The notes below the pieces were generated by a model, which did no database searches, had not been told where the DNA came from, and saw nothing but the letters and a program-made list of their open reading frames with translations. From Candidatus Aenigmatarchaeota archaeon (GTDB lineage Archaea; Aenigmatarchaeota; Aenigmatarchaeia; CG10238-14; SpSt-28), in assembly GCA_038997165.1 (NCBI GenBank), contig JAWBAK010000001.1, positions 61,926 to 125,925 on the forward strand: DNA of 64,000 nucleotides, written 5' to 3'. Positions 34,958 to 64,000 of this stretch are shown piece after piece. Numbering within the stretch: position 1 is the stretch's first letter; each line of letters starts with the position of its first letter. Position numbers and translations under genes: made by a program.

Positions 34958-34962
34958 TTATT

Positions 34963-37900: not shown

Positions 37901-38100
37901 TAGAAAAATACGAATTAGAAAATCTTAAAAATGAAATAAAAATTATAAAAGAAAAAATTGAAAATCAAGAAAAATTAATTAAGAATTTGGAAGAAAAAAT
38001 TACATTAATAAAAGAGGGACTACCAAAAGAGATAAAGGATATAGAGGATATAATAATTTCTTTTAAAAATCTTGAAAATGAGTTTAGAATTATAGAATAA
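34963..38100 (+). CDS. 1045-aa K/E/N/I-rich coiled-coil protein with an internal nucleotide-identical repeat
   Basis: Heptad periodicity across the whole length. No P-loop, no TM. Repeats at 35875-36048 and 37441-37614. TAA at 38098-38100 directly abuts the stop of the convergent gene. Confidence 0.8.
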   Translation: MQENRVDIESLKTKVDVLTKLITRIREDIEKDFSSLKEEAKKELTSMIENKVKEFDKEFEEVIKKFEEIYKSDVEKLKSKIQDLEAYSKISLNTKLDKIDIEIKKVEDLYNSLESEIKKIKNFIISLEEEKTKFENKFNIINSLKIQVSSLIEKISSLDNLLSKISVLTSEIKTLESEVKILKDFQNLEVAKSKENIIRILKELEKFEEFIRNLKNENASLKLFADQLNSIIENNIENFEKYKIEINEKFENIKNFFDSQIKSIKEENFLTINNLVKKIEEIENKIIEFEKEKTNEINTKVNEAFEKLNSINNYFENSIKEIYKNIDSLKNEAQNKLNVLENKLKEINEKLEEFKTKEVEEKIKTIRNELEEVKINIENQKKFINELLKENLQLFENKLKEFEEKKINEKINLINISLENKIRNFEEKLQKIDNNLIQIKSNLENRLIELEEKEKINNIEKGKEISKLKKLIENIILKMNSFEEETKNSINILKNELEETKLKNKEIRDNFLQNVENVNKMFRNISEKVEKIQKFFTEYDKIIKDFYSKIEILNKKIEENKIFAKNIEEFKNEMNLIKENLSNVYENLNNKFLEVENKINENENKLKTFNKNIERIWLEIENIKKNLNKFSIFENEIKRKINDNLQNIINQLKNEVKELEEKKTLEIDEKIKRIENNLSLIINNTQNMIEKLSETYENKIKKLEENLKIIEINIENKLSNINNLSDNIKNEFNEKIKNLKSELDLINNAINNIKAEINKTISENLNFLREEVNNKLKEVEEKEIMETKIKLEELSKLFSLTQENLNKTKENLNNIKNEIDQKINEHFEKLNSINNYFENSIKEIYKNIDSLKNEAQNKLNVLENKLKEINEKLEEFKTKEVEEKVITIENEIKNIIKNFELLKNISDENTKKIEDLKNKFEDNIKKEANMIKSDIEEKINKISNNLEKKIENIESLISFLSEKTNNIDNELKTFNKKEFVEKYELENLKNEIKIIKEKIENQEKLIKNLEEKITLIKEGLPKEIKDIEDIIISFKNLENEFRIIE
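35875..36048 (+). repeat. Copy 1 of a 174-nt exact repeat inside the 1045-aa gene (partner 37441-37614)
   Basis: Encodes FEKLNSINNYFENSIKEIYKNIDSLKNEAQNKLNVLENKLKEINEKLEEFKTKEVEEK. Nucleotide-identical to the partner, offset 1566 nt. Confidence 0.9.
37441..37614 (+). repeat. Copy 2 of the 174-nt exact repeat inside the 1045-aa gene
   Basis: Identical to 35875-36048. Confidence 0.9.
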
Positions 38101-38686: not shown

Positions 38687-40807
38687 TTAGCTAAACTTTC
38701 TTTTTATAAAAGTTTTACCTATAACTTTTTCGTTATTTTTTCTTTTTCTTGAAATGAATATAGATAATGTTATTATAATGATAGATACTAAAATGGATAT
38801 ATAAGTATTGTTATCTAATATTAATACAAATTTTCCTGTTAGATAGTTATTTGATTTTAACTCTTTTTGATTAGTTATATAAAAAACAGGTATATCAAAA
38901 TAAAATTCACTAATATTGTTTTTTAGCTTTAACTTTATAATTTCTGGATTAGATTTTCTAGTAAAATTAAAAAGTTTTATTTTTATAGATTCTCCAACCA
39001 TAATTCTATCGATTTTTATTGTATCTACTTCGCAACCTTCAGAAAATAAATATATGTTTTCTAAATCTTTTTGACCAGAATTTTTTATTTCTATAATTTT
39101 TTCATTTTCAAAATCAGAAAGTTCTATTGATGTATTTAATAAAGTTAATTCTATTTTTGCTTCTGTAACTATATTAATAGCTTCTCTAAAATTTACAAAA
39201 AAATCGCTTTCTGAAAAAAGTAATAAAGTATAGTTTCCTTCGATAGATGGTGAAGATAAAATTAATTCAAATCTACCATTTTGAGTTTGTATAGTATAAA
39301 CTCTTCCATTAAATGAAGCTTTAAAATTTATATCTTGAGGTTTACCTGTGCTATCTATAACTATTCCTCTTAATAGTATTTGCTCGTTTAAATAATATTT
39401 TGGTTTATTAAGTGAATATTGAATTTTTAAGCTTAATTTTTCAAAAATTCCAAAGTAACTTTTATCAAATATTTCAAATTCTATATAATTTGCTATTGTA
39501 TTTTTAGTAAACAATCTAACTTCAAATTTTTTACAAGATTTATCTTTTAAAGAAATTTCTTTACAAAAAATTGGATAAACCATTTCTTCGGAATCAATTT
39601 TTCTTTCATCGTAATATATCCTTGTAATTATTTTTTCAAATTCTAAATCTGTTTCGAAAACAAAAAAATCTAAAATTTTTAAATTTTTTTCGTTAAGAGT
39701 TATAGGATAAAATCTTATTGAGTTATCAAAATATTTTAAATTAACGTTAATCATTCTTATTTCTGCGTTTTTATATTTTATAGTTATATTTCTTTTTCCG
39801 GGTAAAAATAAAAATGTTTGATTTCCAGATAAAGAATATTGAAGATCATCTATTTTTAATGTTATAGTTATTGGATTATTATCATAATCAAAAAAATTAC
39901 AAACTCCAAGCTTTCCTATATTTACTGTTTTTTTAACATCTATCCAATGCATATTATATCTTACTCTAAATTTTATTGTTGAAGCCTCTGCAGGCAAAGT
40001 TATATTAATACATATTCTATTATTACAATCAAAAAAGTTGTTTAACTTAGCATTTTCAACTTCAATACTTATGTTATTTGAACTTAATTTATTTCCCTTA
40101 AATGAAACATCCATAGCAGCAACTACAGAACTTTCTGGATAATAAATTTTATCTTCTAAATCTACATTAGCTTGAAGAGGATTATTAATAACTAAATTTA
40201 AATTCTTAGAAAAAGTTCTAGAAAAATTTCTTAAAAAAATTGAAATCGTTTCTATTTTGTTTATCTCTTTCGATGGAACAAACTTCAAATAATAATAGTA
40301 TCCAATTCTATCCAATTTAAAATTATCTGTAAAAGAGAATTTTATATCAAATTCTGAAGGATCCATAACTCTCGGCTTATTACTCCAACTCTCTTTTAAA
40401 TTAAGAATAAACTTTATTGAAGTCTCTTCGTTTAAATAATTATTTGAAATTTCCAGTATATCAAAATTTAGTACATGCAAGCTTATTCTTATGGTTTTTG
40501 ATATATTAATATTTTGAATTTCATTAAAACAAATAGCTGTTACATTAAAATCTTGAGATAAATAATCTTCATATTTTAATGTTAATTGATTCTTAGGATT
40601 TATAAAAATTCTTTGCAAACCATTATCTATAGATATTACTATTTTATCTAAAATATAATCAGTAGGACAACTAACACTTATGTTAATATTATCACCTAAA
40701 AAAGCATCGGTAGGAAAAAAATCTATGTTTATAGATTCTTGAGAAAAAGTAAGCAATAAAAATAAAATTGAGATTAAAAAACTTTTTGTTATATAAAACT
40801 TAGCCAT
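38687..40807 (-). CDS. 706-aa secreted surface protein with C-terminal TM anchor and K/R tail
   Basis: N-terminal signal MAKFYITKSFLISILFLLLTFSQ. NxS/T-rich beta-sandwich-like body. C-terminus ISILVSIIIITLSIFISRKRKNNEK. The start overlaps the upstream MinD stop by 19 nt. Confidence 0.8.
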   Translation of the reverse strand: MAKFYITKSFLISILFLLLTFSQESINIDFFPTDAFLGDNINISVSCPTDYILDKIVISIDNGLQRIFINPKNQLTLKYEDYLSQDFNVTAICFNEIQNINISKTIRISLHVLNFDILEISNNYLNEETSIKFILNLKESWSNKPRVMDPSEFDIKFSFTDNFKLDRIGYYYYLKFVPSKEINKIETISIFLRNFSRTFSKNLNLVINNPLQANVDLEDKIYYPESSVVAAMDVSFKGNKLSSNNISIEVENAKLNNFFDCNNRICINITLPAEASTIKFRVRYNMHWIDVKKTVNIGKLGVCNFFDYDNNPITITLKIDDLQYSLSGNQTFLFLPGKRNITIKYKNAEIRMINVNLKYFDNSIRFYPITLNEKNLKILDFFVFETDLEFEKIITRIYYDERKIDSEEMVYPIFCKEISLKDKSCKKFEVRLFTKNTIANYIEFEIFDKSYFGIFEKLSLKIQYSLNKPKYYLNEQILLRGIVIDSTGKPQDINFKASFNGRVYTIQTQNGRFELILSSPSIEGNYTLLLFSESDFFVNFREAINIVTEAKIELTLLNTSIELSDFENEKIIEIKNSGQKDLENIYLFSEGCEVDTIKIDRIMVGESIKIKLFNFTRKSNPEIIKLKLKNNISEFYFDIPVFYITNQKELKSNNYLTGKFVLILDNNTYISILVSIIIITLSIFISRKRKNNEKVIGKTFIKRKFS

Positions 40808-41514
40808 TTTTTTAGAAATAAGAAGCTTGGTTTTTTATAAGGAATACCTAAAAAATTGCTAGCAAAACTTTTAATTTCTATTGTAAATGAAGAATAAGGA
40901 TTATAAAACACATAGGGTATTCCTTTGTTTAAACTCTCCTTTATTTTTGTATCTTCTGGTAAAACAGCTAAAATAGGTATTCCTGAAATATCAAAAATTT
41001 CGTTTGGACTAATTGATTTTTTTGTATATCTATTAACTATTATTCCAGTAATTTTTATATTTTCCTTTTCAAACTCTTTTATTATTCTCATTAAGGCATA
41101 TATCGAAGTTGTTTCTGGTAAAGTTAGTAAAAATATTTCGTCACATATTTTCGCTATTTCCAAATTTTTTTCAGATATTCCTGGTTCTGTATCTATAACT
41201 AAAAAATCAAAACTCCCTTCTAAATCATTTAATATGTTTATGTTCTTATAGTTTAGATTAGAATCTCCGGTTGGTAAAACTCTTAACCCAAAAGGGGTTA
41301 AATATATTGCATTATTTATCGGTATTTCAAAATTTAAAGCTCGCGAAAGATTTAAATTATAGTTTATTAGACCTAAGGAAATAGATAAAGAATTGTTAAG
41401 ATCTGTATCTATTAATAATGGATTTTTTTCAAAACATAATAAAGAGCTTGCAAAATTTATTGCAAATGTTGTTTTTCCTACACCACCCTTAGCTGAAAAA
41501 ATCCCTATTTTCAT
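40789..41514 (-). CDS. MinD/ParA-family ATPase paralog, 241 aa
   Basis: MKIGIFSAKGGVGKTTFAINFASSL (deviant Walker A). LIDTDLNNSLSISLGL. LVIDTEPGIS (Walker B-like). Confidence 0.8.
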   Translation of the reverse strand: MKIGIFSAKGGVGKTTFAINFASSLLCFEKNPLLIDTDLNNSLSISLGLINYNLNLSRALNFEIPINNAIYLTPFGLRVLPTGDSNLNYKNINILNDLEGSFDFLVIDTEPGISEKNLEIAKICDEIFLLTLPETTSIYALMRIIKEFEKENIKITGIIVNRYTKKSISPNEIFDISGIPILAVLPEDTKIKESLNKGIPYVFYNPYSSFTIEIKSFASNFLGIPYKKPSFLFLKKWLSFI

Positions 41515-45800: not shown

Positions 45801-48800
45801 ATGGAGTTAAAAGAAATTGTTTTGGTTTTTTTGGTATTTCTAACATTTTTTAGCTTTTTTTCTTTTTCCCAAATTGAAACTCAAAGATTTAATCAATCGG
45901 AAAGTTCTGTAATAATAGGAAGTGCATCTACATTAAATCAAGCTGTTATAGATTCTCTTCTTAATATAGATTCTGATGGATTGACTTGGAATATAGCAAA
46001 ATCTCAAGTACCGCATAGGAAAATTAAAACTGTTGAATACTTCATTTATCAAGATATGACACAAATGGCAGCAAATACTGAAAAATCTGGAAGCTTTACT
46101 GTTTACATTCCAGAAAAAAATCCAATAATAAGAAGCGCTATAATAGAAATAAGAAACTTAATATACAATGCTCAAATAACAGCGGGTCAAACTGTTATTT
46201 TATCCAATGGAACTACAAACATAACACTATTAATCACTCAAGCAGGTCCAGCAGCTACTGGAGAAAATATGTATTATACATTTTTAATTAATGCAACAGA
46301 TGCCTTAAGAAATTTTATTTCTGGAAGTGGTACTTATACTTTTACTTTATACGTTAAATTAAATGCTATTAGACAAGGAGAAAATGCAAAATTAATTTTG
46401 ACGTATGAATATGATAGCGATTCTCCTAGAGAAATTAAAACAATTAGATTTTTTGTTGGTCAAATAAATTCAACCTTAGCTGTAGGTTCATCTACTAATT
46501 TTACAATTCCACCATTAAATCTACCAGAAAAAAATGTAATTATAAGGGATGCTTTTTTTGAAACATATATTCACTTACAGCCAGGAGGTACTGTAGATCA
46601 AGGTATATCAATAGATTTAGATGGTGTAAACGCAATTTCTGGAACACCTATAGATAATGCTGGTGTAACCACAATAGATTATGTTTTTTTATATAGAAAC
46701 ATTTTTGATACATCAACATCGCATACTTTCAATTTTAAACCAACTGCTGGTTATGCTTTACATGCAGTTGGTACTGAATTAGTATTAACTTACGAATATG
46801 ATAGCGATTCTGAATTGCAATTAAAAACTGTAAGGTATTTAATTGGTCAAGATGGTGGATTATACACTACACCACACACAGCAACATTTTCAAGAACTAT
46901 TATTATTCCAGAAGATGTTAAAAGTATTATAAGCGCTTATAATAGAGTAACTTTTTCCATAGCTTATGGTACAGGAGCCGGAACAACAACATATACAACA
47001 ACAATTGGTGTAAATTCATCTGTTTCTGGAGAATCTCAACCTAGAGTTGATTATATATTGGGTTTAAGAGATGAGCAAGTAAGTCATTCAATGATTTTAT
47101 ATAATGCAACTGGTTTATACAGTATAACAAATGGTACAACTATAGTCTGCTCTGTTTATAGCTCAGCAGCTTCCACAAGCTATTATACTGGAAGTAAAGG
47201 TTGCGAATTAATATTAACTTATGTTTATAATGCCTCTAATTCAACTTCATTTGTAAATAGCGTAGAATATTTTGTAGGTAGTAGTTATCATTTAGCTTTA
47301 GCATCTTCAATTAACTTTCCTTTTAGTTTTGTAATATCTGAACCAAATTATTTAATTAGAGATGCCTATTTAAATGTATATGGATTTACTGGATCTTCTA
47401 CAGCAGCTACAAATACCTTAGTTTCTTATGTTGACGTTCCAGGATATGTTTCTCAAACATGTAATTTCAGAAATACTGGAGAAGCGAGGTCTGATTTCTG
47501 TTGGGATTACGTTGGAGATAATATAACTGTTGCAAACAGTTATACTGTAGTTTTATCTTCTAGTGTAACAAGATGGTTTGCATCAAAACTAATAGTAACT
47601 TATTCTTATATGCCATTTTATAAAGTTGAAGTTGAACATAATGCATCGATATTTTTTGAAGGTCTTCTAAGAAATATTAGCATAATGATTAACTTCACTT
47701 CTTCTACTCAAAGCACTTTTTCTATGCATATATATGATTTCAAAAACAATCAATGGAATAGTACTATTTGTCAGAATTTATTAGCAAACCCAAACCAATT
47801 CTATGTTTATTGGTGTAATATAAGCAATTCAGAAGTTAATAATTTTGTTTCTAATGATAATAAAGTTAGGGTTAGATTTTTTTCTAACGAAGATTTTAAT
47901 CAAGGAGTTTTAATGGAAGAATATGTACAGTTTTTCGTTACTTATGAATTCATTAACTATGCACCAATTTTGTTTGATAACATCGAAATTCCTAACTCAC
48001 CAACTACATATTTAAAAAATAGAGCATATATTTTTAAAGTTAAAGTAACTGATCTTAATGGAGAAAATGATATAGATAGTGTTATATTTGAGTTTAATGG
48101 AATTAATCAAACTGTAAATAATTACGTTACAATAAATTCTACTACTAGAGAATATTCTATAGAAATTTATGATTTGGCTGCAAATCCATATGGATATATT
48201 TTTAGATGGTACGCTAAGGATAAAAGAAATTCTTGGTCAAATGTTGTTGAAGGAATGTATGTAATTAACAAAGCTATTCCAGAAATAAACTTAGAATTAT
48301 CTAATAGTATAGTAGATTATCCTAACGAAACAAATGCTACTTGCTATTTAATTTTAGGCGACGAAGAAAATAACCTAAAACTCTATAGAAATAATACTCT
48401 TGTTAATAGCAATAAAGATAGAGTTTCAGAAATTGCTATATTAGGCGCTGGAGTTTATGAATATTCATGTTATTATGAAGAAACTCAGAACTTTACTTCA
48501 TATTTAGTTGAAAATTTTATATTAACTATAAATAAGGGCATTCCAAAAGTATTCTTAGAAATTAATGGAATGCAAGATGATTACATAACTTATTATCCAG
48601 AAGAGATAAACATTACAGCTTGGATGGAAAACTTATATGAAGAGGGAGAAATAAAATTATATAAAAATGGGAACTTAATCTTTTCTGGAAAAAGATTTTC
48701 TGAAGTTTCTGTTTTAGCAGCTGGAGAATATTATTTTGATTTAATTTTTGAAGAAACACAAAACTATACTTATTATGAAATTAGAAACAAATATCTAAGA

Positions 48801-51800
48801 ATAAATAAAGGAATTTCTTCAGCTCAGCTAATTATATATCCAGAGTCTCCAATAACATATGGAACAGAAACTACTGCAATATGTATAGCTACAAATCCAG
48901 AAGCTGAAGCAAAATTATGGAGAAATGGAACAGATGTTACTAGTGAAAACGGAACAGCTATAATATTGCCGGCAGGAATTTGGTATTATGAATGTAATGT
49001 TACAGAAACACAAAATTACACAAGTGCCTCTGATTCTAAAATATATATAGTTAATAAAGCGTTTGTTGAAGTGAAACTGTTTTTAAATGGAACAGAAGAA
49101 GATAGAGTTTATACTTATGGAGATTTTGCAAACATAACTGCAACTATTAATGTTTCTGATAAAGTTATTTATATAGAGGCTAATTTTAGCGGATATCCGG
49201 AAATTATAGCATATGGAAAAGATGTTGTTACTATAATAACTAATAATTTTGGTGCTGGTATCTATAATATAACTGCTTATTTTTCTGGGGATCAAAATTA
49301 TACAAGTAGTTTTAAGAGTTTATTGATGATAGTGAATAAAAAACCAACAAACATATATCTGTGGATAAATGGAACAAGAGAAAATAAGGTTTATTATGAT
49401 AATGCAACAATTAATTTTACTGTTGAATTGCTAGAAAATAACGATATAGTTCGGTTATTAAGTAACTATAGCGATGGTAATTATAAAATTATTTCAAGTG
49501 GAGTTTCTCCGTTAATAACTATTCTTAACTTAGATGTTGGGGGTATATTTAATTTTACAGGTTATTATCCTGGAAACCTTAACTATACTGAAAGTTCTGA
49601 AAGTTGGATAGTAACCATAGGAAAAATGAATGTAAATGTAGAGATTTTACCAGCACAAAAAATAGGAATAAACGATGTTTTTAATATAAAGGGAGTTTGT
49701 AGTTGTATGTATGTGAATTGTAGTAATGTTAATGTTGAGTTGTTAGTAGACAATGAAAGAATTTCAAACGAATCATTATCTTTACAATTAGTAGATGGGG
49801 ATAATCCATATTATTTGGAAGGAAGTTTTGATTACATAGAAGTTTTTTGGAATGTTTCAGCAAATATAATAGGGAATTATTCTATAAAGGTTAAGTGTAA
49901 CTCCTCTGAATTTTATGATAAGTTTTCTGAAGAAAAAACTATAGAAATTATAGATAATAAAGCACCTAAGTGGTTTTTAAACAGAAGCTTTCCTGAGATA
50001 GCTTATTATTCTCCGAATGCTAATTATAGATTTAGCATTGTTTGGATAGATGAAAGCGAAATAGAAGAAGTTTTAATAGAGCATAACTTTACTTCCATAG
50101 TTAAAAACGATAGTATGATAAAAAATGGTAATGAATTCTATTTTGAAATATATGATTTGCCAGCGGGAACTTATTATTGGAAAAGCTATGCTAAGGATAT
50201 ATATGGAAATTGGAATGTTAGCCACGATTTTATTTACGTTGTAAATAAAGCGCCTGTTGAAATAAAAATATATTTTAATGGAAGTGAAGAGCAAAATGTT
50301 TTTGATGTTTATGATATAATAAACGTTACAGCTATAATAAATGTAAGCAATAAAATAATTTATTTGAATTCGAATCTTCCAAATTGGGATATAGTTGAAA
50401 ATAATACAATAATAGATATTTTAGTTAACCTTAATAAAAAAGGTAAGTTTATATTTAGCTCATATTTCTTGGGAGATCAAAATTATTCCTCGTATTATAT
50501 CGAAAAAGAAATTGAAGTAGTTGATAGAATTCCGCCAAAAATTGTTTTTATTGGACAAAATAGAAGTTGGATTGGAGTAGGAGAAAGTTTGCTTATTTTT
50601 GGTAAATGGGATGACAACTATGATTTAGATTACGCTTGGTTGGAAACTAATGAAAATGGTTCTTGGGAAAATGTCTCTTATGTTAAATTGAATTTAGAAG
50701 ATAATTTAATTTGGTCCAATTTTACTTGGAGAAATCCAGAAGTAATCGCTGGTAGTTGGATTAGTTGGAGAATATGTGCTAATGATACATCTAATAATAT
50801 AAAGTGTTCTCAAATATATAGTTTTTTTGTTAATGCGAGTAAGCTATGGAACATTACTTTGAATGAAAGAATTTTTTCTTCTCCTTCAATAGGAGATGTT
50901 AATGGAGATGGAGAAATTAATGTTGTTATTGCAAGTTTTAATGGAACATTATACGCTATAAGAGCTGTTAATGGAGAAATTCTTTGGATAATCAACTTAC
51001 CTGGAAGAATTGTTGGAAGTCCCTCTCTTTCGCAGCTAGAAAATGAAAATTATTTGAGAATTTTCATTGGTAGTTATGATTATAATTTATATGCTATAAA
51101 TGGTAGTGATGGAAGTAAAATATGGAATTTTTCTGCTAGTGGAAGAATTGTCTCTTCAGCAGCTATAGGAGATGTTAATGGAGATAATGTTATAGATATA
51201 GTTTTTGGTTCGGAAGATGGAAAGGTCTATTGCATAGATATTCTTAATGGAAATTTAATATGGAGTTTTCAAACTAATGGAAGAATAGTTTCTTCGCCAT
51301 CAATAAAGAAAATTGGAGATGAAACATATGTTTTCATTGGCAGTTATGATTATAATTTATATGCTATAAATGGTAGTGATGGAAGTAAAATATGGAATTT
51401 TTCTGCTAAGGATAAAATTGAAAGTACTCCATTAATAGATGATTTCGATAATGACGGAAAATATGAAGTTGTTTTTGGATCTTATGATAGAAATGTTTAT
51501 GTTTTAGATGCTCAAACAGGAAATTTGCTATGGAACTATACAACCAATAATTGGATAACTTCTTCTCCAATAACTTTAAGAGTTGGAAATGATAAAAAAA
51601 TTATAATTACGTCACATGATTCGAAGGTTTACTCTTTTAATCCAGATGGCACAATTAACTGGACTTTTACAATTCCTACAGGTGGAAGGGTTCCATATTT
51701 ACCTTCTGCTTTCGATGCAAATAAAGACGGTATTCAAGATGTTATAGTTGGTGCTACAGACGGAAGAATTTATGTAATTAATGGATTAAATGGAACTCTA

Positions 51801-53429
51801 ATTTGGTTTTATAATATTGGAAACTACATTTATACTTCTCCCGCAATTGCAGATCTAAATAGAGATGGAAAATTAGATGTTTCTTTTGGAGGCTTAGATA
51901 GAAATGTATATGCACTAGATCCTCCATCTTGGAATATGTTTGGTGGAAACGAAAGAAGTACAAGAATTTATGATATCGTTCCGCCAAAGCTTATTCATTA
52001 TGAAAAAGAAATAGATGGTTGTAATATTAATATTGTTTCTAAATGGAAAGATTTATCTAATCTTGAATTTGCAGAAGTATTTATAGAGAGTGAAAATTTA
52101 AAAGAAAAGTACAAAATTAAATTATTTGGCCCAGAAGATTGGGTTAATATTACATTTAAATCTTGCAATAATTCTATTGTAAATATAAAAGTCTTGGATG
52201 AATATGGAAATGTAGAAAAGCTAGAAGATTATATAGAGATTAAAGTTTACGATAATAAACCAAAAATAATAGAAGTTAAAACTATTCCAAACACAAGTTT
52301 TTATAACAAAAATCAAGTTTATGAGATATTGGCAAAAATAGAAGATGATTATGAAATTTCGAATGTTTTGATTGAAAATGATTTTAAAGGTTATTTATCT
52401 AACGAAAGTATGTATTTAGAAAACAATTATTTTGTTTATCACATTTCTAGCTTGGAAGCCAATACTTATAAATTTAGGATACATGCATGTGATTTATCAA
52501 ATAATTGCGAAAGTTCTGAATGGAATGAAATAATAATTCTTAAAGCTCCTCAAAATGTTACGCTTAAATTAGATAAAGAAACTTACAAATATGGAGAGTT
52601 TATTAAAATTAATTGCACAGCCGCTAAAGACGAAATTTCAAAAATAAAAATACTTATAAACGACAGTTTAATAAAAGAAGAAATAAGTAATGAAATAAAC
52701 ATCTCATTAAAGTTGCAGAGTGGTTATTGGAAAATTAAATGCATTGCAGAAGAATCTAAAAATTATTTAGAAGGTTTTGATGAAAAAACAATTGTAGTTG
52801 AAAAAAGAATTCCAAAAACTAAGCTAAAAATTAATTATAATGAAAGTGATGTAGTATTAGAATGTCCGGCTAAAATAAGAATTGATGCATATTCTTTAGA
52901 AGAAGATGAGGATGTCGAATATTATTTATTCCTATCTTCAGAAGAATACAATGAATTTTTAGGTTATGGAAAAAATATAAGCTTAGAATTAATTTTTGAA
53001 AATGCGAGAAACTTTAAAGTTATATATAACAATAGCGGGGGAAAAAATATTTTTTCACATCAAATAGTTAGAAATGTTTTTATTATCGATAATAAAAGTC
53101 CTAAAAATATATTTTATAAAAAAAGCCTTAATAGAGATGATTTAATTATTACTTCTAAATGGATGGATAATTGTAGTGAGATAGTAAGAGCTATAATTAC
53201 TGAAAATAGCAATGGAAATAAAGAAATTGTAGTAAAACCTGTTAATGGTTGGGTTAACTATACAATATCTAGAACAGATTTATTCTCTACATATGGATGT
53301 AAATGGATATTAGGAAGAATATGCATAAAGGAAGTAAGTTTTGAAATAAAGGTTTTTGATTCTTTCAATAATTTCGCTATTAAAAAAGATAAAGTTAAAC
53401 TAATTTTTTTAAGTTCTAGAAAAATATAG
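45801..53429 (+). CDS. 2542-aa secreted giant surface protein: four ~135-aa N-terminal repeats, Ig-like repeats, internal beta-propeller, further beta-sandwich domains
   Basis: Signal VLVFLVFLTFFSFFSFSQ. Four repeats end in (L/I)(I/V)LTYEYDSDS, LVLTYEYDSDS, LILTYVYNASNS and LIVTYSYMP (about 46000-47620). Three or more Ig-like repeats of the form KLYRNNTLVNS...ETQNFTSY...INKG lie at about 48250-49350. No TM at the C-terminus. Confidence 0.85.
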   Translation: MELKEIVLVFLVFLTFFSFFSFSQIETQRFNQSESSVIIGSASTLNQAVIDSLLNIDSDGLTWNIAKSQVPHRKIKTVEYFIYQDMTQMAANTEKSGSFTVYIPEKNPIIRSAIIEIRNLIYNAQITAGQTVILSNGTTNITLLITQAGPAATGENMYYTFLINATDALRNFISGSGTYTFTLYVKLNAIRQGENAKLILTYEYDSDSPREIKTIRFFVGQINSTLAVGSSTNFTIPPLNLPEKNVIIRDAFFETYIHLQPGGTVDQGISIDLDGVNAISGTPIDNAGVTTIDYVFLYRNIFDTSTSHTFNFKPTAGYALHAVGTELVLTYEYDSDSELQLKTVRYLIGQDGGLYTTPHTATFSRTIIIPEDVKSIISAYNRVTFSIAYGTGAGTTTYTTTIGVNSSVSGESQPRVDYILGLRDEQVSHSMILYNATGLYSITNGTTIVCSVYSSAASTSYYTGSKGCELILTYVYNASNSTSFVNSVEYFVGSSYHLALASSINFPFSFVISEPNYLIRDAYLNVYGFTGSSTAATNTLVSYVDVPGYVSQTCNFRNTGEARSDFCWDYVGDNITVANSYTVVLSSSVTRWFASKLIVTYSYMPFYKVEVEHNASIFFEGLLRNISIMINFTSSTQSTFSMHIYDFKNNQWNSTICQNLLANPNQFYVYWCNISNSEVNNFVSNDNKVRVRFFSNEDFNQGVLMEEYVQFFVTYEFINYAPILFDNIEIPNSPTTYLKNRAYIFKVKVTDLNGENDIDSVIFEFNGINQTVNNYVTINSTTREYSIEIYDLAANPYGYIFRWYAKDKRNSWSNVVEGMYVINKAIPEINLELSNSIVDYPNETNATCYLILGDEENNLKLYRNNTLVNSNKDRVSEIAILGAGVYEYSCYYEETQNFTSYLVENFILTINKGIPKVFLEINGMQDDYITYYPEEINITAWMENLYEEGEIKLYKNGNLIFSGKRFSEVSVLAAGEYYFDLIFEETQNYTYYEIRNKYLRINKGISSAQLIIYPESPITYGTETTAICIATNPEAEAKLWRNGTDVTSENGTAIILPAGIWYYECNVTETQNYTSASDSKIYIVNKAFVEVKLFLNGTEEDRVYTYGDFANITATINVSDKVIYIEANFSGYPEIIAYGKDVVTIITNNFGAGIYNITAYFSGDQNYTSSFKSLLMIVNKKPTNIYLWINGTRENKVYYDNATINFTVELLENNDIVRLLSNYSDGNYKIISSGVSPLITILNLDVGGIFNFTGYYPGNLNYTESSESWIVTIGKMNVNVEILPAQKIGINDVFNIKGVCSCMYVNCSNVNVELLVDNERISNESLSLQLVDGDNPYYLEGSFDYIEVFWNVSANIIGNYSIKVKCNSSEFYDKFSEEKTIEIIDNKAPKWFLNRSFPEIAYYSPNANYRFSIVWIDESEIEEVLIEHNFTSIVKNDSMIKNGNEFYFEIYDLPAGTYYWKSYAKDIYGNWNVSHDFIYVVNKAPVEIKIYFNGSEEQNVFDVYDIINVTAIINVSNKIIYLNSNLPNWDIVENNTIIDILVNLNKKGKFIFSSYFLGDQNYSSYYIEKEIEVVDRIPPKIVFIGQNRSWIGVGESLLIFGKWDDNYDLDYAWLETNENGSWENVSYVKLNLEDNLIWSNFTWRNPEVIAGSWISWRICANDTSNNIKCSQIYSFFVNASKLWNITLNERIFSSPSIGDVNGDGEINVVIASFNGTLYAIRAVNGEILWIINLPGRIVGSPSLSQLENENYLRIFIGSYDYNLYAINGSDGSKIWNFSASGRIVSSAAIGDVNGDNVIDIVFGSEDGKVYCIDILNGNLIWSFQTNGRIVSSPSIKKIGDETYVFIGSYDYNLYAINGSDGSKIWNFSAKDKIESTPLIDDFDNDGKYEVVFGSYDRNVYVLDAQTGNLLWNYTTNNWITSSPITLRVGNDKKIIITSHDSKVYSFNPDGTINWTFTIPTGGRVPYLPSAFDANKDGIQDVIVGATDGRIYVINGLNGTLIWFYNIGNYIYTSPAIADLNRDGKLDVSFGGLDRNVYALDPPSWNMFGGNERSTRIYDIVPPKLIHYEKEIDGCNINIVSKWKDLSNLEFAEVFIESENLKEKYKIKLFGPEDWVNITFKSCNNSIVNIKVLDEYGNVEKLEDYIEIKVYDNKPKIIEVKTIPNTSFYNKNQVYEILAKIEDDYEISNVLIENDFKGYLSNESMYLENNYFVYHISSLEANTYKFRIHACDLSNNCESSEWNEIIILKAPQNVTLKLDKETYKYGEFIKINCTAAKDEISKIKILINDSLIKEEISNEINISLKLQSGYWKIKCIAEESKNYLEGFDEKTIVVEKRIPKTKLKINYNESDVVLECPAKIRIDAYSLEEDEDVEYYLFLSSEEYNEFLGYGKNISLELIFENARNFKVIYNNSGGKNIFSHQIVRNVFIIDNKSPKNIFYKKSLNRDDLIITSKWMDNCSEIVRAIITENSNGNKEIVVKPVNGWVNYTISRTDLFSTYGCKWILGRICIKEVSFEIKVFDSFNNFAIKKDKVKLIFLSSRKI
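51061..51138 (+). repeat. 78-nt near-exact repeat, copy 1 (partner 51331-51408), two propeller blades apart
   Basis: Both copies read ttttcattgg[t/c]agttatgattataatttatatgctataaatggtagtgatggaagtaaaatatggaatttttctgcta, with 1 mismatch. Encodes FIGSYDYNLYAINGSDGSKIWNFSA. Confidence 0.9.
51331..51408 (+). repeat. 78-nt near-exact repeat, copy 2
   Basis: Matches 51061-51138 with 1 mismatch. Confidence 0.9.
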
Positions 53430-53432
53430 GTT

Positions 53433-53954
53433 ATGAAAAAGAGTTATTTAGTAGCACTAATTATTTTAATTTTCTTTATCTTTTTATTTTTTAACTTTTT
53501 TATTATAGAAGAAGAAATAATATTATTTCCAAAATTTGGTAAAGATAGTGATGGTAGTTTAAGCGATGAAATAGTTGAAAATATTAAAAAAGGTTATGAA
53601 AGAGTAATTCTAAAATTTTATCCATATGGTTTTTTAGAGGTTTGGGGTTGGGAAAATCAGTTTTTTGTTAAAAAAATTTTTGCAGTAGTAGAATGGAGAG
53701 CCGATGAAGATTTAGGAGCTGGAAATATATTTATTGGTTATTCGTTAGATGGAAAAAATTACTATGAAATTGGCCCATTCAATGCATCTAATAATTATAC
53801 GAAAACAATAATAGAAATTCCTATTAAAACATTCTCTAACATAGAAAATATAAAGATTAGGTTTAGAGGAGAGGATTTGGATTATGCAATAGATGCATAT
53901 GCAGAAGTTAAAATTTATCTAAAAGTTATAAGGTATAAATTTAGATTATATTAA
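53433..53954 (+). CDS. 173-aa secreted protein that is a single copy of a new ~140-aa domain
   Basis: N-terminal TM/signal LVALIILIFFIFLFFNFFI. Domain landmarks FYPYGFLEVWGW...EDLGAGNIFIGYSLDGKNYYEIGPF...IRFRGEDLDYAIDAYAEVKIY are shared with both domains of the next gene. Confidence 0.7.
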   Translation: MKKSYLVALIILIFFIFLFFNFFIIEEEIILFPKFGKDSDGSLSDEIVENIKKGYERVILKFYPYGFLEVWGWENQFFVKKIFAVVEWRADEDLGAGNIFIGYSLDGKNYYEIGPFNASNNYTKTIIEIPIKTFSNIENIKIRFRGEDLDYAIDAYAEVKIYLKVIRYKFRLY

Positions 53955-56023
53955 TGAGAAAGTTATATAATTCGCTTTTTTTCTTTTTTATCGTAGTTAT
54001 TATAGCAAATATTATACACTCTCCATTATCTGAATTCTTTCCTATGAATTGTATTGATAGTGATGGAGATTGTAATGCAGAAAGAATAAAGTATTTAGAT
54101 AATGAATATGAAACGATTGATTTATTGTATTATCCTTTTGGATATTTAATTGCTAGGGATTTTGAAATAGAAATACCAGACGAAAACGAAATAGATTATG
54201 TAAATATTAGTGTTTTCTGGTATACTGATGTAGGTGAAGGTGCTGGAAATATCTATATAGAATATTCTTTTGATGGAACAAATTGGTATTATTGTTCTGG
54301 ACCATATAGTGAAAGTTCTGAAATAGTTCATTCTTATTGTAGCTTAAGCTCAATATCTAAGGAACAATTGCAAAATCTAATGGTTAGGTTTAGAGGAGAG
54401 GATTTAGATGGATTTCCAATGGCATTTGCTTATATAGATCAAATAAGCCTATATGTACATCATTCTTCTGCTCCAAAATTAAGAAATCAAACTACAAATA
54501 CTACAAATGATTTTATTTACTTTGATCAAGCAATTGAGCTATCTATAGAAGTATTTAGCGATAATGGAATTTCTTGTGTATGGTTATCTACGAACGAGAG
54601 CGGTAATTGGATTAATTATACCGACGGAACATATAATTCTCCAATATGTTTAGATGGTATTTCAAATACTTGGGTAAAGGTTAACTTTACTTGGAAAAAT
54701 TCCTCTGCGATAGGATATGTTGGATGGAAAATTTATGTAAATGACACACTTGGAAAAATAAACGTAAGTGATGAAAAAACTTTTTTTGTTCAATATAGAG
54801 TTTTTCCTATGAATTGTATTGATAGTGATGGAGATTGTAATGTAGAAAGAATAAAGTATTTAGATAATGAATATGAAATGATTGATTTATTGTATTATCC
54901 TTTTGGATATTTAATTGCTAGGGATTTTGAAATAAATTTAAAGGGAAACATTCTTATAAGAGATGCTAGTATTCATGTTTTCTGGTATACTGATGTAGGT
55001 GAAGGTGCTGGAAATATTTATATAGAATATTCTTTTGATGGAACAAATTGGTATTATTGTTCTGGACCATATAGTGAAAGTTCTGAAATAGTTCATTCTT
55101 ATTGTAGCTTAAGCTCAATATCTAAGGAACAATTGCAAAATCTAATGGTTAGGTTTAGAGGAGAGGATTTAGATGGATTTCCGATGGCATTTGCTTATAT
55201 AGATCAAATTTTTGTATCATTTAATTTTTCATACGTTTATTCTTATCTAGAAGTTATTTTAACTTCTCCAAAAACAAACGTAATAAATAATATATTCCAA
55301 AACTCTACATTTTTTGTTAATGTTTCGATTTTTTGTAGAAATGGAAATTGTACTGATGTAAAAGCTGTTATAAGATATAATGAATCGTCTCCATATCCAA
55401 ATACTCCAATTAATGAAACGTATGGAGCAAAGCCGTTTTTCATAGATGAAGAAAATCCTAATTCAATTAAATATTGTGGCAATATGAGTATGGATGAAAA
55501 ATGCGATTTATATTGGATAATAAATGCTAGCGGAAACGTAAAAAGCATTTGGAAAATAGGTGTTTTAGTTTTTTCTTCCGATGGAATTTATAATCATACT
55601 GAAAACGCGACAATAAAAATTATAGGTTGCGTAATAGATGTTACTCTAACTTTTGATAAAATAAGTTTTGGTGATGTTTTACCTAACGTTATTGGAAATC
55701 CTGCCGAAGGGAATAATAATGAAGAGTATAAAATAATAGTAAATCCAGGAAGTTGCTCAATAGATGCATATATTAAAGGTTATGATTTGTACAATGATAC
55801 ATACAATTCTAAAATTCCTGTACAAAATATAAAAGTTAGTAATCAAAGCAATGATTACAGCAGTTCATTTAGTTTGGATTATGAGTTTAAATTATTAATA
55901 AAAAGTTTAGCTCAAAATTCGATTAAGCCAATATTTTTTTGGTTAGATGTACCACCAGTTTTTGCTGGAATTTACTATGGAACCATTACAATAAAAATAG
56001 TTGAAGAAGATGAATTGCCTTAA
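53954..56023 (+). CDS. 689-aa secreted protein: two tandem copies of the same new domain plus a C-terminal Cys-containing beta-rich region
   Basis: Start overlaps the previous stop (taATGa). Domain copies at aa ~30-165 and ~285-420 share (Y/F)YPFGYLIARDFEI...WYTDVGEGAGNIYIEYSFDGTNWYYCSGPY...MVRFRGEDLDGFPMAFAYIDQI. Confidence 0.8.
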   Translation: MRKLYNSLFFFFIVVIIANIIHSPLSEFFPMNCIDSDGDCNAERIKYLDNEYETIDLLYYPFGYLIARDFEIEIPDENEIDYVNISVFWYTDVGEGAGNIYIEYSFDGTNWYYCSGPYSESSEIVHSYCSLSSISKEQLQNLMVRFRGEDLDGFPMAFAYIDQISLYVHHSSAPKLRNQTTNTTNDFIYFDQAIELSIEVFSDNGISCVWLSTNESGNWINYTDGTYNSPICLDGISNTWVKVNFTWKNSSAIGYVGWKIYVNDTLGKINVSDEKTFFVQYRVFPMNCIDSDGDCNVERIKYLDNEYEMIDLLYYPFGYLIARDFEINLKGNILIRDASIHVFWYTDVGEGAGNIYIEYSFDGTNWYYCSGPYSESSEIVHSYCSLSSISKEQLQNLMVRFRGEDLDGFPMAFAYIDQIFVSFNFSYVYSYLEVILTSPKTNVINNIFQNSTFFVNVSIFCRNGNCTDVKAVIRYNESSPYPNTPINETYGAKPFFIDEENPNSIKYCGNMSMDEKCDLYWIINASGNVKSIWKIGVLVFSSDGIYNHTENATIKIIGCVIDVTLTFDKISFGDVLPNVIGNPAEGNNNEEYKIIVNPGSCSIDAYIKGYDLYNDTYNSKIPVQNIKVSNQSNDYSSSFSLDYEFKLLIKSLAQNSIKPIFFWLDVPPVFAGIYYGTITIKIVEEDELP
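54038..54444 (+). repeat. About 407-nt repeat, copy 1 (partner 54803-55209): two near-identical blocks around a ~45-nt divergent core
   Basis: The two copies align nucleotide-for-nucleotide with about 4 mismatches, except for a replaced ~45-nt segment (about 54168-54213 versus 54933-54978). Confidence 0.9.
54803..55209 (+). repeat. About 407-nt repeat, copy 2
   Basis: See copy 1. The offset is 765 nt. Confidence 0.9.
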
Positions 56024-56624
56024 TAAAAAATTGTTTTTTATAATATTTTCTATAATACTGGAGTTTAATATTATATTTTCTCAAATTAATTTCGGAAGTT
56101 ATCAATATGAAAAAATATTAGAAGTTAAAAACGAAACTCTATTAACTTCAAAAATTTTGATTTGGAATTCTGGTAAAAATGATATTGAAGTTGTTTTTGA
56201 AATAATTGAAAAACCGAAAAATGTTGAAGTGTATTTAGATAAAAAAGAGATTATATTAAGCTCTGAGCTAAAAAACGATTACGAAATTTTAATAATAAAT
56301 AATAGAGAGATAAAAGTGCTTCCAGTAAATGTATATTTTTACATTTTAAGTAAAGATGCTAGTGGATATGTTAAAATAAGAGCTTACGCAAAAAGTTTAG
56401 AAAATGCAGAAATACCTATAAGACAAGAAAGAGAATTCCTATTTATAATAAATAAGGTTGAAGATAGTAAAAAAGAAAAAGTAGAAACCAAACTTACTGA
56501 AAAAATAATAGAAAGTGTATCGAATTCTATAAGGGAAAATCCTACAAATATTTTGCCAGTAATAATAATAGTAATTTCTGTTTTAGCTTCGTTAATAATA
56601 CTTAAAAGAAAAAATTCTGAATGA
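56001..56624 (+). CDS. 207-aa secreted protein with C-terminal TM anchor
   Basis: Signal LFFIIFSIILEFNIIFSQ. C-terminus ILPVIIIVISVLASLIILKRKNSE. The start overlaps the upstream gene; an alternative ATG at 56010 is possible. Confidence 0.65.
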   Translation: MKKMNCLNKKLFFIIFSIILEFNIIFSQINFGSYQYEKILEVKNETLLTSKILIWNSGKNDIEVVFEIIEKPKNVEVYLDKKEIILSSELKNDYEILIINNREIKVLPVNVYFYILSKDASGYVKIRAYAKSLENAEIPIRQEREFLFIINKVEDSKKEKVETKLTEKIIESVSNSIRENPTNILPVIIIVISVLASLIILKRKNSE

Positions 56625-60684: not shown

Positions 60685-61722
60685 TTGGGAGAATTTTTAA
60701 GCAACTTTCTTAGATTTGTTTTTGGGTTTTTAGCAGATAGAATTAAAAATTATTGGCTCTTTATTTTTATAGGTTATTTTTTCTTAATTTTTGTTCCACT
60801 AATGTTTTTTGCTAATAGTTGGCAAATAGCAATTTTATTTATAATATTTGAAAGAATAGGAAAAGCTATTAGAAATCCTGCAAGAGATACTATTGTATCT
60901 ATAATTTCGGAAAGAACAAAAAGTATTGGCTTTAATTTCGGAATTATTGAATTTCTCGATCAAATAGGAGCATTAATAGGTCCTATAATTATTGCTATAT
61001 TTTTTCTTTTATATGTAGAAAATGTTATTGATAAATATAAAATAGTATATTTATTTTTGTTTATTCCATTTTTAGTTTTAATTTTTTTACTTTTAGTTAC
61101 ATATTCAAAAACAAAAAATTTAAAAATTAATATTAAAAAATTGAAAGACAAAAATATTCCAAAAATTTTTTGGTATTATAATTTATTTATATTTTTAACT
61201 TCATTGGGATTTATACATTTTGCAATTTTAGGATATCATTTTAAATCAAAAAATATAGCTGAAGATCATCTTATTGTTTTTCTTTATTCTATAGCAATGA
61301 TATTTGATGCAATAATTTCTCCAATTATTGGAAAAATTTATGATAAAATGAAGGAAAAGAAAAAATCTTTTTTTGACTTATTTTTTATTATTCCAATACT
61401 TAGCATTTCTATACCTTTTTTAGTTTTTATTAATAAAATTGAAACAATAGTTCTTAGCATGATATTTTATGGTTTTGTTTTAGGAATGCAAGAAACTATA
61501 ATGAGAGCTGCAATTGCAGATATTACTTCGATTTCAAAAAGAGGCTCTGCATATGGAATTTTTTCATTTGTTCTTGGTATTTCAGCATTTTTTGGTTCGA
61601 CAATAATAGGAATTCTTTATGAAATATCTCTTTTATATCTGTTTATTTTTATTATAACTTCTCAAGTTTTAGCCTTAATGATGCTAATAGCAATTAGAAA
61701 TAGGTTTAAGAATTATTTTTAA
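60685..61722 (+). CDS. MFS-type transporter (intact C-terminal part; annotated start is TTG, N-terminus probably frameshifted)
   Basis: MFS motif A GFLADRIKNYW lies after TM2. About 10 further hydrophobic helices follow. As annotated, the protein would begin inside TM2. Confidence 0.7.
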   Translation: MGEFLSNFLRFVFGFLADRIKNYWLFIFIGYFFLIFVPLMFFANSWQIAILFIIFERIGKAIRNPARDTIVSIISERTKSIGFNFGIIEFLDQIGALIGPIIIAIFFLLYVENVIDKYKIVYLFLFIPFLVLIFLLLVTYSKTKNLKINIKKLKDKNIPKIFWYYNLFIFLTSLGFIHFAILGYHFKSKNIAEDHLIVFLYSIAMIFDAIISPIIGKIYDKMKEKKKSFFDLFFIIPILSISIPFLVFINKIETIVLSMIFYGFVLGMQETIMRAAIADITSISKRGSAYGIFSFVLGISAFFGSTIIGILYEISLLYLFIFIITSQVLALMMLIAIRNRFKNYF

Positions 61723-64000
61723 TATTTTCAAGAAAATTTTTTAAATCATTTTTAACTTTATATAATTTTTCTTTAAGTTTTTCACAATTTCCTTCAAAGA
61801 ATTCATAATAATTTCCATCTTTTATTTTTATCTCTAAATATCCATAAGGTGTTTTCAATTTTTCTATTTCTTCTGAAAAACTATTTATTTTTTGATATTC
61901 AAAATCTATCCCTCTAAAATAAATATTTGAATTTTCAATTTTTAATTCAAATATTGGTGTTTCTAAGGAATAAATTTTAATAGAAGAATTTATAAATTCT
62001 TTTTCTTTTTTGAAATAATTTTCAAATATTTTTAAAATAAAGTTTGAAGAAGAAATTATTCTTTGAATAATAGGAATTTCAAAAATAAATTTTGGTTTAG
62101 TAATATTTATTTCTTTTTCATATTCAATTTCAAAATATTTAATTTTAACTAAATAATTACCTTCTTCTAATTTATAAGAAATTCTTGAAAAACCAAAAAC
62201 CTCTTTTACATCTTTTAATACAGTAAAATTATTTTTTAAGATTTCTATAGAAACATTTCTTGGAAAATCCGAAAAAATTTCTATGTATAAATTAGTATTT
62301 TGAGAATATAAATTTCTTATTTCAAAAGAATTGTCATATTTAATTTCAATTTCAAAATCCTTTAGTAAAATTGTTTTATTATTAATAAATCTTGCCGGAT
62401 ATAAGTTTATATAAATATCTTGAATATCATTAGAATTATTAACTAAAACAATATCATAAAATTTGGAAATGTTTGTTAAAGGAAAATATTCATTAATTTC
62501 TATAATTGAATAATTTATAGAATAATTTTTTAAAGATTTGAATTGAGGTAAGTTAATTTTTTCTTGTAATATATAAAGTAAAGAAATATTATTGTACATA
62601 TTTAAAGTATAAACATCTGTATAGTTACAAACAAAAGTTGTATAATTTGTATTATTAATTTTTAAATTTACTATTGAACATATATCTTTGAAAACTAATT
62701 TAATTTTTGGATTTGAATGAATTAAGTAATTATAATATTCTTTCTTTGACTTATTAATTATTTGAAATGTTTCTCCAATAAAAATTATTGAATTTAACCA
62801 GTCTTCACTATATTTTTTATACTCTTCAGAAAAAATATAAATTAAATGTGCTGGAGTTATTCCAAAAAATTCCGAAATTTTTGAATTCCTTGCTTCTTTT
62901 AGAGATTTTGAAAGAGTAAAATTATAATCTAAAATTTTAGAAAAAATATCTAATGCGTGAGCTGAAGAAATTAAATTTGTATGATTTTTATATCCTAATT
63001 TAGTAAAAGCTTTTAAATATGGTAAAGAGTTTTCAAAATTGTTTAGACTTGCATCAAAAACTATTTCTATAAATTGCAAGTTTGAAATATTAACCTCTTC
63101 TCTATAAGTTTTATTAGTAGGTAATATGTATTTTTCTTTTTCTGTTAAAGTAATAATAAAAAGAATAGAAGTATTATCTAAATATTTTAAAAAATTTGAT
63201 AAATTTAATATTTCTAATACTCTTATTGGATTTGTCTCTATTTCAAAAAGAAGTCTTGATATTAAATTTGAAAATTGAAATAAATTTTTTAAAAATTTTA
63301 TAGCTTCAGAAAAACTTATTTCTTCGTTGGTAGAAATAATTTCCTTAAATATTTCTATTAATTCTTGAATATTTTCATTAGTAAGTCTTTTTTCAGTTAG
63401 TCTTTCTACATTGTATTTATTATACTTTAATTTATCTCTTATTTCTGCTATAAATGGCATAAAGCCTCCCTTAAAGAAAAATTCCTTTATATCACTTTCG
63501 TTTATTATATCTAAATATGTTTGAACAATTAATGCGTTTTTTGTCAAGTTAGCAAGTTTTTTTGCTTCTATTTGTAAACTTATTTCTTCTAATGAGCAGC
63601 AAAGTCTTCTTATAGGAAGATCTTGAAATTTATCATCGTTTAAATCTGCATAAGGATAATCGCTATAAATAATAAGATCTTCTGTAATTTTTATTGGATA
63701 AGAAGGAACTTTAGAAAAATCTCCAACAATTACAATTTCCGGTTCTAATGTTGATAAAAGATTGAGAGATCTTAATTTATCATAAGTTTGTTTAATAATT
63801 GTTTTAATTTCAAATGGGTTCGATGTATTAAGAAATATTGGAAAACAATTATATCTAGAAGAATATGTAATTATCTTTTTCTCTATGTTTGTTTTATCAT
63901 TAAAATTCTTTTCTGATATCAACATACAATCATAGAAATTACGAACATTTGTCTTTACAGTTGTATTTAATATTACTAGATTTCCACCTCTTCCGACATA
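61706..64000 (-). CDS. 739+-aa protein, 5'-partial (minus-strand frame open to the window edge); N-terminal region has a gingipain (peptidase C25)-like motif; no signal peptide seen
   Basis: The ORF track's Met is at 63925, but codons 63926-64000 on the minus strand have no stop (YVGRGGNLVILNTTVKTNVRNFYDC-MLISEK...). Motif PEIVIVGDFSKVPSYPIKITEDLIIYSDYPYADLNDDKFQDLPIRRL resembles the C25 strand-loop, GD...P...SD..Y..D.D...P.GR(l). Catalytic His/Cys could not be placed with confidence. Confidence 0.6.
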   Translation of the reverse strand, partial: YVGRGGNLVILNTTVKTNVRNFYDCMLISEKNFNDKTNIEKKIITYSSRYNCFPIFLNTSNPFEIKTIIKQTYDKLRSLNLLSTLEPEIVIVGDFSKVPSYPIKITEDLIIYSDYPYADLNDDKFQDLPIRRLCCSLEEISLQIEAKKLANLTKNALIVQTYLDIINESDIKEFFFKGGFMPFIAEIRDKLKYNKYNVERLTEKRLTNENIQELIEIFKEIISTNEEISFSEAIKFLKNLFQFSNLISRLLFEIETNPIRVLEILNLSNFLKYLDNTSILFIITLTEKEKYILPTNKTYREEVNISNLQFIEIVFDASLNNFENSLPYLKAFTKLGYKNHTNLISSAHALDIFSKILDYNFTLSKSLKEARNSKISEFFGITPAHLIYIFSEEYKKYSEDWLNSIIFIGETFQIINKSKKEYYNYLIHSNPKIKLVFKDICSIVNLKINNTNYTTFVCNYTDVYTLNMYNNISLLYILQEKINLPQFKSLKNYSINYSIIEINEYFPLTNISKFYDIVLVNNSNDIQDIYINLYPARFINNKTILLKDFEIEIKYDNSFEIRNLYSQNTNLYIEIFSDFPRNVSIEILKNNFTVLKDVKEVFGFSRISYKLEEGNYLVKIKYFEIEYEKEINITKPKFIFEIPIIQRIISSSNFILKIFENYFKKEKEFINSSIKIYSLETPIFELKIENSNIYFRGIDFEYQKINSFSEEIEKLKTPYGYLEIKIKDGNYYEFFEGNCEKLKEKLYKVKNDLKNFLENIKNNS

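Follow-up and report, generated by a model that had tools for sequence, protein, structure and literature searches.

How can two copies of a domain within a single gene be nearly identical in their DNA over some 400 nucleotides (nt) and still differ sharply in one short internal block? The question is raised by two neighbouring genes on the forward strand of contig JAWBAK010000001.1 (assembly GCA_038997165.1) from a hot-spring archaeon of the Candidatus Aenigmatarchaeota, of which we analysed positions 61,926 to 125,925, a stretch of 64,000 nt that we call the window and in which all coordinates below are counted. Our comparisons demonstrate that the two copies stem from an ancient duplication and have been kept alike by recurrent gene conversion within the gene, while the block is ancestral divergence that conversion has spared. 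Of the two open reading frames (ORFs), the first encodes 173 amino acids (aa; 53433..53954, +), and the second, whose start codon overlaps the stop codon of the first, encodes 689 aa (53954..56023, +). The larger gene contains domain copy 1 (D1, 54038..54466, +) and domain copy 2 (D2, 54803..55231, +), recognised by a hidden Markov model (HMM) with independent E-values of 1.2e-62 and 5.2e-63, and the smaller gene (2.6e-44) carries a single cysteine-free copy (domain DNA 53526-53939, +). ORFs, repeat alignment and a six-frame HMM scan of the 64-kb window, which returned three domain copies exactly, agree on a domain present thrice in two adjacent genes, as had been proposed in an earlier reading made without database searches (hereafter the sequence-only reading). 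That reading had also taken the 173-aa gene for a diverged third copy, which is borne out by an identity of 34-35% to both other copies (BLASTP E 1e-19), and all of the landmark motifs that it quoted were found. The similarity among the three copies is far beyond chance.

The near-identity of D1 and D2 is confined to two long segments that flank the block. A direct-repeat search recovered 54038-54169/54803-54934 (98% identical) and 54198-54444/54963-55209 (97%), at a spacing of 765 nt. When the two 407-nt copies (54038-54444 and 54803-55209) are aligned as one unit, four single differences stand outside the block (copy 1/copy 2: 54078 C/T, 54114 C/T, 54253 C/T and 54418 A/G). The block itself (54170..54210, +, protein EIPDENEIDYVNIS, in copy 1; 54935..54975, +, protein NLKGNILIRDASIH, in copy 2) is position-specific and unconverted in both copies and differs at 24/42 nt. 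The description of about four differences plus a swapped 45-nt cassette was therefore accurate for the single positions, but the block measures ~42 nt, or 14 codons, rather than 45 nt. All of the sequences that we used come from short-read metagenome assemblies. The same two copies are found in two sister strains, at loci L002 (GCA_038741235.1; 98.3% identical over 11.8 kb) and L003 (JAVYPJ01; 98.1% identical), and at least 13 loci from different samples have a two-copy gene with a spacing of 732-765 nt, the copies of some being only 61% identical in DNA.

The duplication that gave rise to D1 and D2 is ancient and predates the divergence of the family. In a nearest-neighbour comparison of 15 two-copy proteins (30 copies), the copy at the same position in another species was the best match for the C-terminal tail of the domain in all 30 cases and for the 20-column block in 24, while the rest of the domain (the scaffold) matched its own paralogue best in 12 of the 30. 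The protein identity of the two copies within one chain varies between 0.51 and 0.94 across lineages, and codon maps of the copies show long runs without any difference, synonymous differences included, whose borders are specific to the lineage. These runs cover codons 1-44 and 59-136 in the window, L002 and L003; codons 2-39, 58-90 and 116-136 in L001; codons 1-39, 54-91 and 115-134 in L005 and L007; and codons 1-49 and 105-143 in L014. L013 has a single run of all 142 codons, 99.5% identical, with the block included. Elsewhere the copies are ~61% identical in nucleotides throughout (L012, L017, L018), and in L015 as many as 53 codons have synonymous-only differences between the copies. Because synonymous sites are identical within the tracts and yet differ at these 53 codons of L015, purifying selection, which we considered as a cause of the identity, cannot explain it, whereas gene conversion can.

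The three close strains tell the same story at a finer scale. Outside the block, the window, L002 and L003 together have 14 variable sites, none of which is position-specific; six of the 14 are specific to one strain yet common to both of its copies, and at a seventh, 54114, where the window copies differ (C/T), the other two strains are fixed for alternate alleles. Within the block, each of the three strains shows the same 24 position-specific sites, to which two singletons are added. Synonymous-identical tracts, shared strain-specific changes and mosaic borders, by which gene conversion is recognised, are thus all present, and the near-identity of D1 and D2 is the result of recurrent, ongoing and lineage-specific intragenic conversion, with one fine-scale caveat that we take up below.

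What, then, is the block? Since the block and the tail of each copy resemble the same-position copies of other species, the 14 codons are retained ancestral, position-specific divergence that escaped conversion, and not a replacement. The proposal of evolution by duplication and cassette replacement is contradicted both by this match and by a two-copy layout older than the divergence of the family. Alignment columns 41-60, which hold the block, and 91-110 are the most variable segments of the domain among orthologues (~1.7-1.9 bits, compared with ~0.9-1.1 elsewhere), and these same two segments were left unconverted in several lineages. In the predicted structure, the copy-1 block would form the loop 44-51 and the start of strand 52-64. 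The exemption may come about because divergence stops the extension of heteroduplex, or because selection keeps the copies different.

Other origins of the repeat have to be weighed against recurrent conversion. Seen in this genome alone, near-identity with one diverged block does resemble a recent, lineage-specific duplication followed by the replacement of a 45-nt cassette in one copy. We regard this as very unlikely, as the two-copy architecture with its 732-765-nt spacing occurs in ~13 loci, including lineages with 61%-identical copies, for which the position-specific tails argue against independent duplications; block and tail match the same-position copies of other species, the conversion borders vary by lineage, and L013 has converted the block too. 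A programmed hypervariation of the 42-nt block, by a diversity-generating retroelement (DGR) or dedicated cassette switching, would fit with the block being the most variable segment of the domain, and DGRs are known in DPANN genomes. This idea was rejected and has hardly any probability left: there is no reverse transcriptase or recombinase among the ORFs of the window, the differences between copies (C/T three times, A/G once) are not adenine-specific, and the block is identical in three strains bar two singletons, which is the opposite of hypervariation. It is also true that repeats of ~400 nt are error-prone in short-read metagenome-assembled genomes (MAGs), and the whole repeat could be imagined as a duplication introduced by the assembler. 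We dismiss this as well, and give it next to no credence, because three independent ~98%-identical strain assemblies have the same structure with private differences in each, and because orthologues from many samples keep the frame and the two copies, some of these being too diverged for an assembler to confuse.

Some members of the family have only one copy. L004, L009, L010/P0020 and P0019 encode a version of ~435-440 aa with a single domain, and in 4/4 of these a copy-1-type block is combined with a copy-2-type tail. Compared with the two-copy loci L005 and L007, L010 has flanks that are 99.2-99.6% identical over ~8.9 kb and a clean 765-nt deletion, and its informative sites pass, with a single exception, from copy-1 type to copy-2 type within an identical tract. 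Such a form is expected equally from recombination between the direct repeats and from the collapse of the repeat by an assembler. In the MAG JAWBTN01, we also observed two ~80%-identical versions of the locus with the small gene and the two-copy gene (L005 and L006, on scaffolds 22 and 75), which reflect either a genuine second, paralogous locus or the binning of two populations into one MAG.

The domain itself, a unit of ~140 residues, belongs to no family that we could recognise. Zero Pfam families matched it at E<=1, NCBIfam (including DNRLRE/CBM96) gave no relevant match, a profile search of all PDB sequences gave chance-level matches only (E>=0.02), and literature searches returned no earlier description of the locus or the domain. 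In the databases, the 689-aa protein has its closest match (99% identity) in a hypothetical protein from a Candidatus Aenigmatarchaeota MAG, and ~24 further relatives are unannotated or hypothetical, and mostly from Aenigmatarchaeota. A family profile built from 31 domain sequences and scored against 1.84 billion representative proteins matched 61 representatives at E<=1e-3 and 37 at E<=1e-10. A number of these matches are spurious and rest on a motif that recurs in several stretches of one protein; the true family therefore comprises a few dozen clusters. We excluded P0045, P0052, P0070 and P0073, unrelated arrays of ~95-aa repeats that share only "IEYYNGSxW" with the domain. These four large proteins have 4-16 tandem repeats, very similar to one another, with the consensus "ITWTA.D.N....PITIEYYNGS.W..IA..E.NDG.Y.W.VP......A.IRV.A.D.AGN". 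A scan of species-representative genomes with strict patterns, whose taxonomic placement does not extend to the distant members P0048 and P0066, found 18 loci, every one in Aenigmatarchaeota or in unclassified archaeal MAGs, and the family has thus far been seen only in these archaea of the DPANN group and in unclassified archaeal genomes.

Within the family, the invariant or near-invariant residues are P3, C6, D8-S9-D10-G11-D12-C13, E26, P34, G36, W62, D65, G69-A70, Y77, W84, C87, P90, C102, R118, R120, G121, D123 and D125, and the signature can be written CxDSDGDC ... YPFGW ... W.TD..GA.NI.I.Y ... R.RG(E/Q)D.DG. The four near-invariant cysteines probably form two disulfides, C6-C13 and C87-C102; all four are lost together in the 173-aa paralogue and in P0065/P0066. 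Among the acidic-site residues, D8, S9, D10, G11, D65 and D123 are invariant and D12 and D125 near-invariant, and the DSDG(D) loop together with the R-x-R-G-(E/Q)-D-x-D motif may constitute a putative Ca2+ site.

A structural model gave a clearer view of the kind of domain involved. AlphaFold2, supplied with the family alignment of 31 sequences, predicted an all-beta structure of 9 strands and two short helices (predicted local distance difference test (pLDDT) 96, predicted template modelling (TM) score (pTM) 0.90). The model is a two-sheet beta-sandwich jelly roll within the usual range of ~120-160 residues. Its best Foldseek matches were CBM22, CBM61, CBM4 and CBM32 (CBM, carbohydrate-binding module), and these are weak (E ~1e-3, TM score 0.4-0.6, <=15% identity). 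Most of the top structural neighbours are carbohydrate binders; jelly-roll neighbours that bind proteins (MAM, the ephrin-receptor ligand-binding domains, IFT25 and a phage baseplate protein) were found too. The domain is predicted to be a beta-jelly roll of the CBM/galactose-binding-domain-like lectin class. It is consequently a new sequence family within a well-known fold class, the fold itself not being new, so that "previously unseen", the wording of the sequence-only reading, holds for the sequence family and not for a very common fold. Its suggestion of a binding or lectin-like module is reasonable at the level of the fold, going by the AlphaFold model and the Foldseek matches. Compared with jelly-roll CBMs (CBM22, CBM4, CBM15, CBM32, CBM61) and the sugar-binding domain of Fbs1, the domain shares the fold class but is only 7-14% identical, has its own family signature in place of any Pfam, NCBIfam or PDB profile match, and comes without an attached glycoside hydrolase.

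The proteins around the domain have the build of surface proteins. The 173-aa protein begins with a hydrophobic anchor or signal (aa 1-32), followed by one domain. The 689-aa protein consists of a signal peptide (hydrophobic aa 3-29), D1 (aa 29-171), an immunoglobulin-like (Ig-like) spacer, D2 (aa 284-426) and a C-terminal part of ~260 aa, and in it, as in most family members, the domain directly follows the signal peptide. The spacer (54467..54802, +) resembles aa 1612-1677 of the giant protein encoded next door (BLASTP, 34% identity, E 9e-8) and has the motif "WLSTNESGxW...W(K/R)IY.ND" in common with orthologues. The C-terminal part (55232..56020, +) is modelled as two Ig/CARDB/FnIII-like beta-sandwiches (pLDDT 93). 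Since the same part follows other, unrelated N-terminal heads in P0021-P0024, it acts like a shared stalk on which the domain is a head that can be exchanged. The 689-aa protein has 16 Cys and 21 N-X-S/T sequons (8.5 +/- 2.6 expected) and the giant neighbour has 84 (37.6 expected), compared with one in a neighbouring cytoplasmic helicase (3.8 expected). This surplus is consistent with N-glycosylated extracellular proteins and, with the N-terminal hydrophobic segments, upholds the earlier description of the domain as secreted. Past its signal peptide, no hydrophobic segment was found in the 689-aa protein, and the LPXTG model gave no match on it, only a below-cutoff match on the neighbouring 207-aa protein. 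We also observed that the NCBI start of the sister-strain gene (L002, 6245-8224; "MNCIDS", 659 aa) cuts off the signal peptide. With an upstream ATG that overlaps the stop codon of the 173-aa gene, the N-terminus agrees with those of the orthologues P0002 and P0003, so the deposited start is probably 30 codons too short.

The two domain genes are part of a larger module. In L001, L002 and most other loci the order is the same as in the window: a giant PQQ/FG-GAP beta-propeller protein, the single-domain protein of ~170 aa, the protein of ~690 aa, and a protein of ~205 aa with a signal peptide and a C-terminal transmembrane segment. In the window, the giant gene (45801..53429, +) encodes a secreted glycoprotein of 2542 aa with Ig-like modules and a PQQ/FG-GAP beta-propeller in Pfam, and its end lies 4 nt ahead of the 173-aa gene; in the window, L001 and L002 alike, the giant and small genes are direct neighbours. 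In almost every related locus, a single-domain orthologue (164-185 aa) immediately precedes the large gene. The fourth gene (56001..56624, +), which starts at TTG 56001 or ATG 56010 and overlaps the end of the 689-aa gene, encodes a small type-I membrane protein of ~204-207 aa with a signal peptide and a C-terminal transmembrane helix. Apart from the two ~98%-identical strains, 10 further related loci have a weakly conserved gene at this position (24-32% identity), and a search for relatives of the 207-aa protein gave two close matches only, neither of them annotated. As the genes abut or overlap in the window, they suggest one translationally coupled operon. In P0065/P0066, homologues of the giant propeller protein (E 1e-55 and 1e-99 to that of the window), the C-terminus continues into a two-helix transmembrane hairpin and a 173-type domain (34-38% identity), a gene fusion by which the small and the giant protein are functionally linked.

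The giant gene has repeats of its own. Its aa 61-720 (45981-47960) form five consecutive repeats of ~115-150 aa, each ending in a "(L/F)(I/V/F)(L/V)TY(E/V/S)(Y/F)" strand; an "IPEKN.IIR.A" motif, similar to the copy-2 block of the domain, recurs in repeats 1-4, and the orthologous giant of L001 is missing this repeat-bearing N-terminal head. Homology between the domain and these five repeats was considered but found no support (hhalign probability 1.3%, local hmmsearch E 0.02-0.05). Further along, two propeller blades (51061-51138 and 51331-51408) have one mismatch in 78 nt, in a 90-nt repeat reported as 93% identical; identity falls to ~62% for a third blade aligned to this unit, and the motif "IGSYDYNLYAINGSDGSKIWNFSA" occurs twice. 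The pair has the appearance of another gene-conversion patch within the operon.

What could such a module be for? Aenigmatarchaeota and other DPANN archaea have tiny genomes and probably live attached to other cells, and to our knowledge next to nothing is established about the molecules that mediate this attachment. We infer that a lectin-like attachment module is the most likely role. The explanation that we favour as a whole, and hold to be probable though by no means assured, combines a jelly-roll ligand-recognition domain, a four-gene attachment module and gene-converted copies. The domain sits as the distal N-terminal head on the Ig-like stalk of surface proteins and would recognise a ligand, probably a glycan on the surface of a host or neighbour cell or on a partner glycoprotein. 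The products of the four genes would form a cell-surface attachment complex of an episymbiotic archaeon, in which the 689-aa protein would present two heads that are identical save in one or two surface segments; gene conversion homogenises the D1/D2 scaffold and stops at the 14-codon segment. Several points weigh against this explanation. The ligand, the binding site and the metal site are putative, as is the host of these archaea; the likeness of the modelled fold is one of superfamily level only, and the same fold serves in protein-protein recognition. The 689-aa protein is devoid of a recognisable membrane or cell-wall anchor, and its retention at the surface is assumed. Finally, the popping of bubbles by short-read assemblers within the repeat may inflate the identity of the copies and mimic some of the shared strain-specific sites, but it cannot create the large-scale pattern of conversion.

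Two other roles can be set beside this attachment module. The domain could be a protein-protein docking module, with the anchored 173-aa copy tethering the giant protein and the 689-aa protein bridging further partners. In the window, the giant is without a C-terminal transmembrane segment and the 173-aa protein has an N-terminal one; the fusion in P0065/P0066 is a Rosetta-stone link between the two, their genes are strictly adjacent in the three loci named above, and the protein-binding jelly rolls provide precedents. Docking is thus a possible role, but a doubtful one in our view, as most of the top structural neighbours bind carbohydrate and a fusion speaks for functional linkage and not for direct binding; in addition, the giant is rich in sequons, and docking could be glycan-mediated, which would merge this alternative with the attachment module. 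A bolder and rather improbable extension is that the locus serves to vary a host-attachment lectin by recombination: conversion would maintain a common scaffold, two specificity segments (columns 41-60, and 91-115 in some lineages) would be under selection, and repeat recombination would switch between bivalent and monovalent forms. If true, archaea would here have a counterpart to Periscope-protein or antigenic variation, adjusted to host range.

Besides the jelly-roll CBMs, two known kinds of system come closest. As in the fibrillar adhesins and Periscope proteins of bacteria (PMC8286594, PMC9210967, PMC8201768), a putative binding domain stands N-terminally on an Ig-like stalk, and with these proteins the locus shares internal repeats of high DNA identity maintained by recombination and, possibly, copy-number variants (two-copy and one-copy, by a 765-nt deletion), which here are known from assemblies alone. 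There are clear differences: the proteins are archaeal (DPANN), the homogenised unit is the putative binding head and not the stalk, only two copies are present, separated by an Ig-like domain, and an internal block is exempt from homogenisation. Head and stalk are arranged as in fibrillar adhesins, whereas an envelope anchor on the same chain, LPXTG-type or other, is lacking. The concerted evolution of duplicated surface proteins, for example the yeast FLO adhesins (PMC3512402), is alike in its synonymous-identical mosaic tracts, lineage-specific borders and chimeric alleles; here, unlike in the FLO case, the process takes place within a single archaeal gene and the position-specific segment is conserved across species.

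The rest of the window consists mostly of two more very large ORFs, at 917-23683 (7588 aa) and 24915-30641 (1908 aa), and of a 739-aa ORF at 61706-63925; all three are strongly enriched in sequons (observed/expected: 269/103, 83/25 and 24/9) and presumably encode more surface glycoproteins. Genes for ParA/MinD-type P-loop ATPases lie beside the clusters of giant surface proteins, both in the window (30675-31442, +; 40789-41514, -) and in L001 (14235-15029) and L021 (12015-12773), a DUF87/HerA-type ATPase being nearby in the latter two loci. The region 32000-38000 has a G+C content of 17-20% with strong positive GC and AT skew, and a 1045-aa protein encoded there has only coiled-coil-type Pfam matches (apolipoprotein-like), all below cutoff.

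In conclusion, gene conversion is a known process that is unusually clear at this locus, which offers an unusually clean natural case of intragenic concerted evolution in archaea, with tract borders mapped across lineages. The locus overturns no current ideas but makes them testable, and its relevance is mainly for specialists of DPANN archaea and of surface proteins. The domain represents a predicted lectin-fold family with a clear signature, fit for inclusion in domain databases. As determinants of specificity, the two segments left out of homogenisation are the obvious candidates, and the conserved four-gene module with its giant beta-propeller is a concrete candidate for the attachment apparatus of these archaea.

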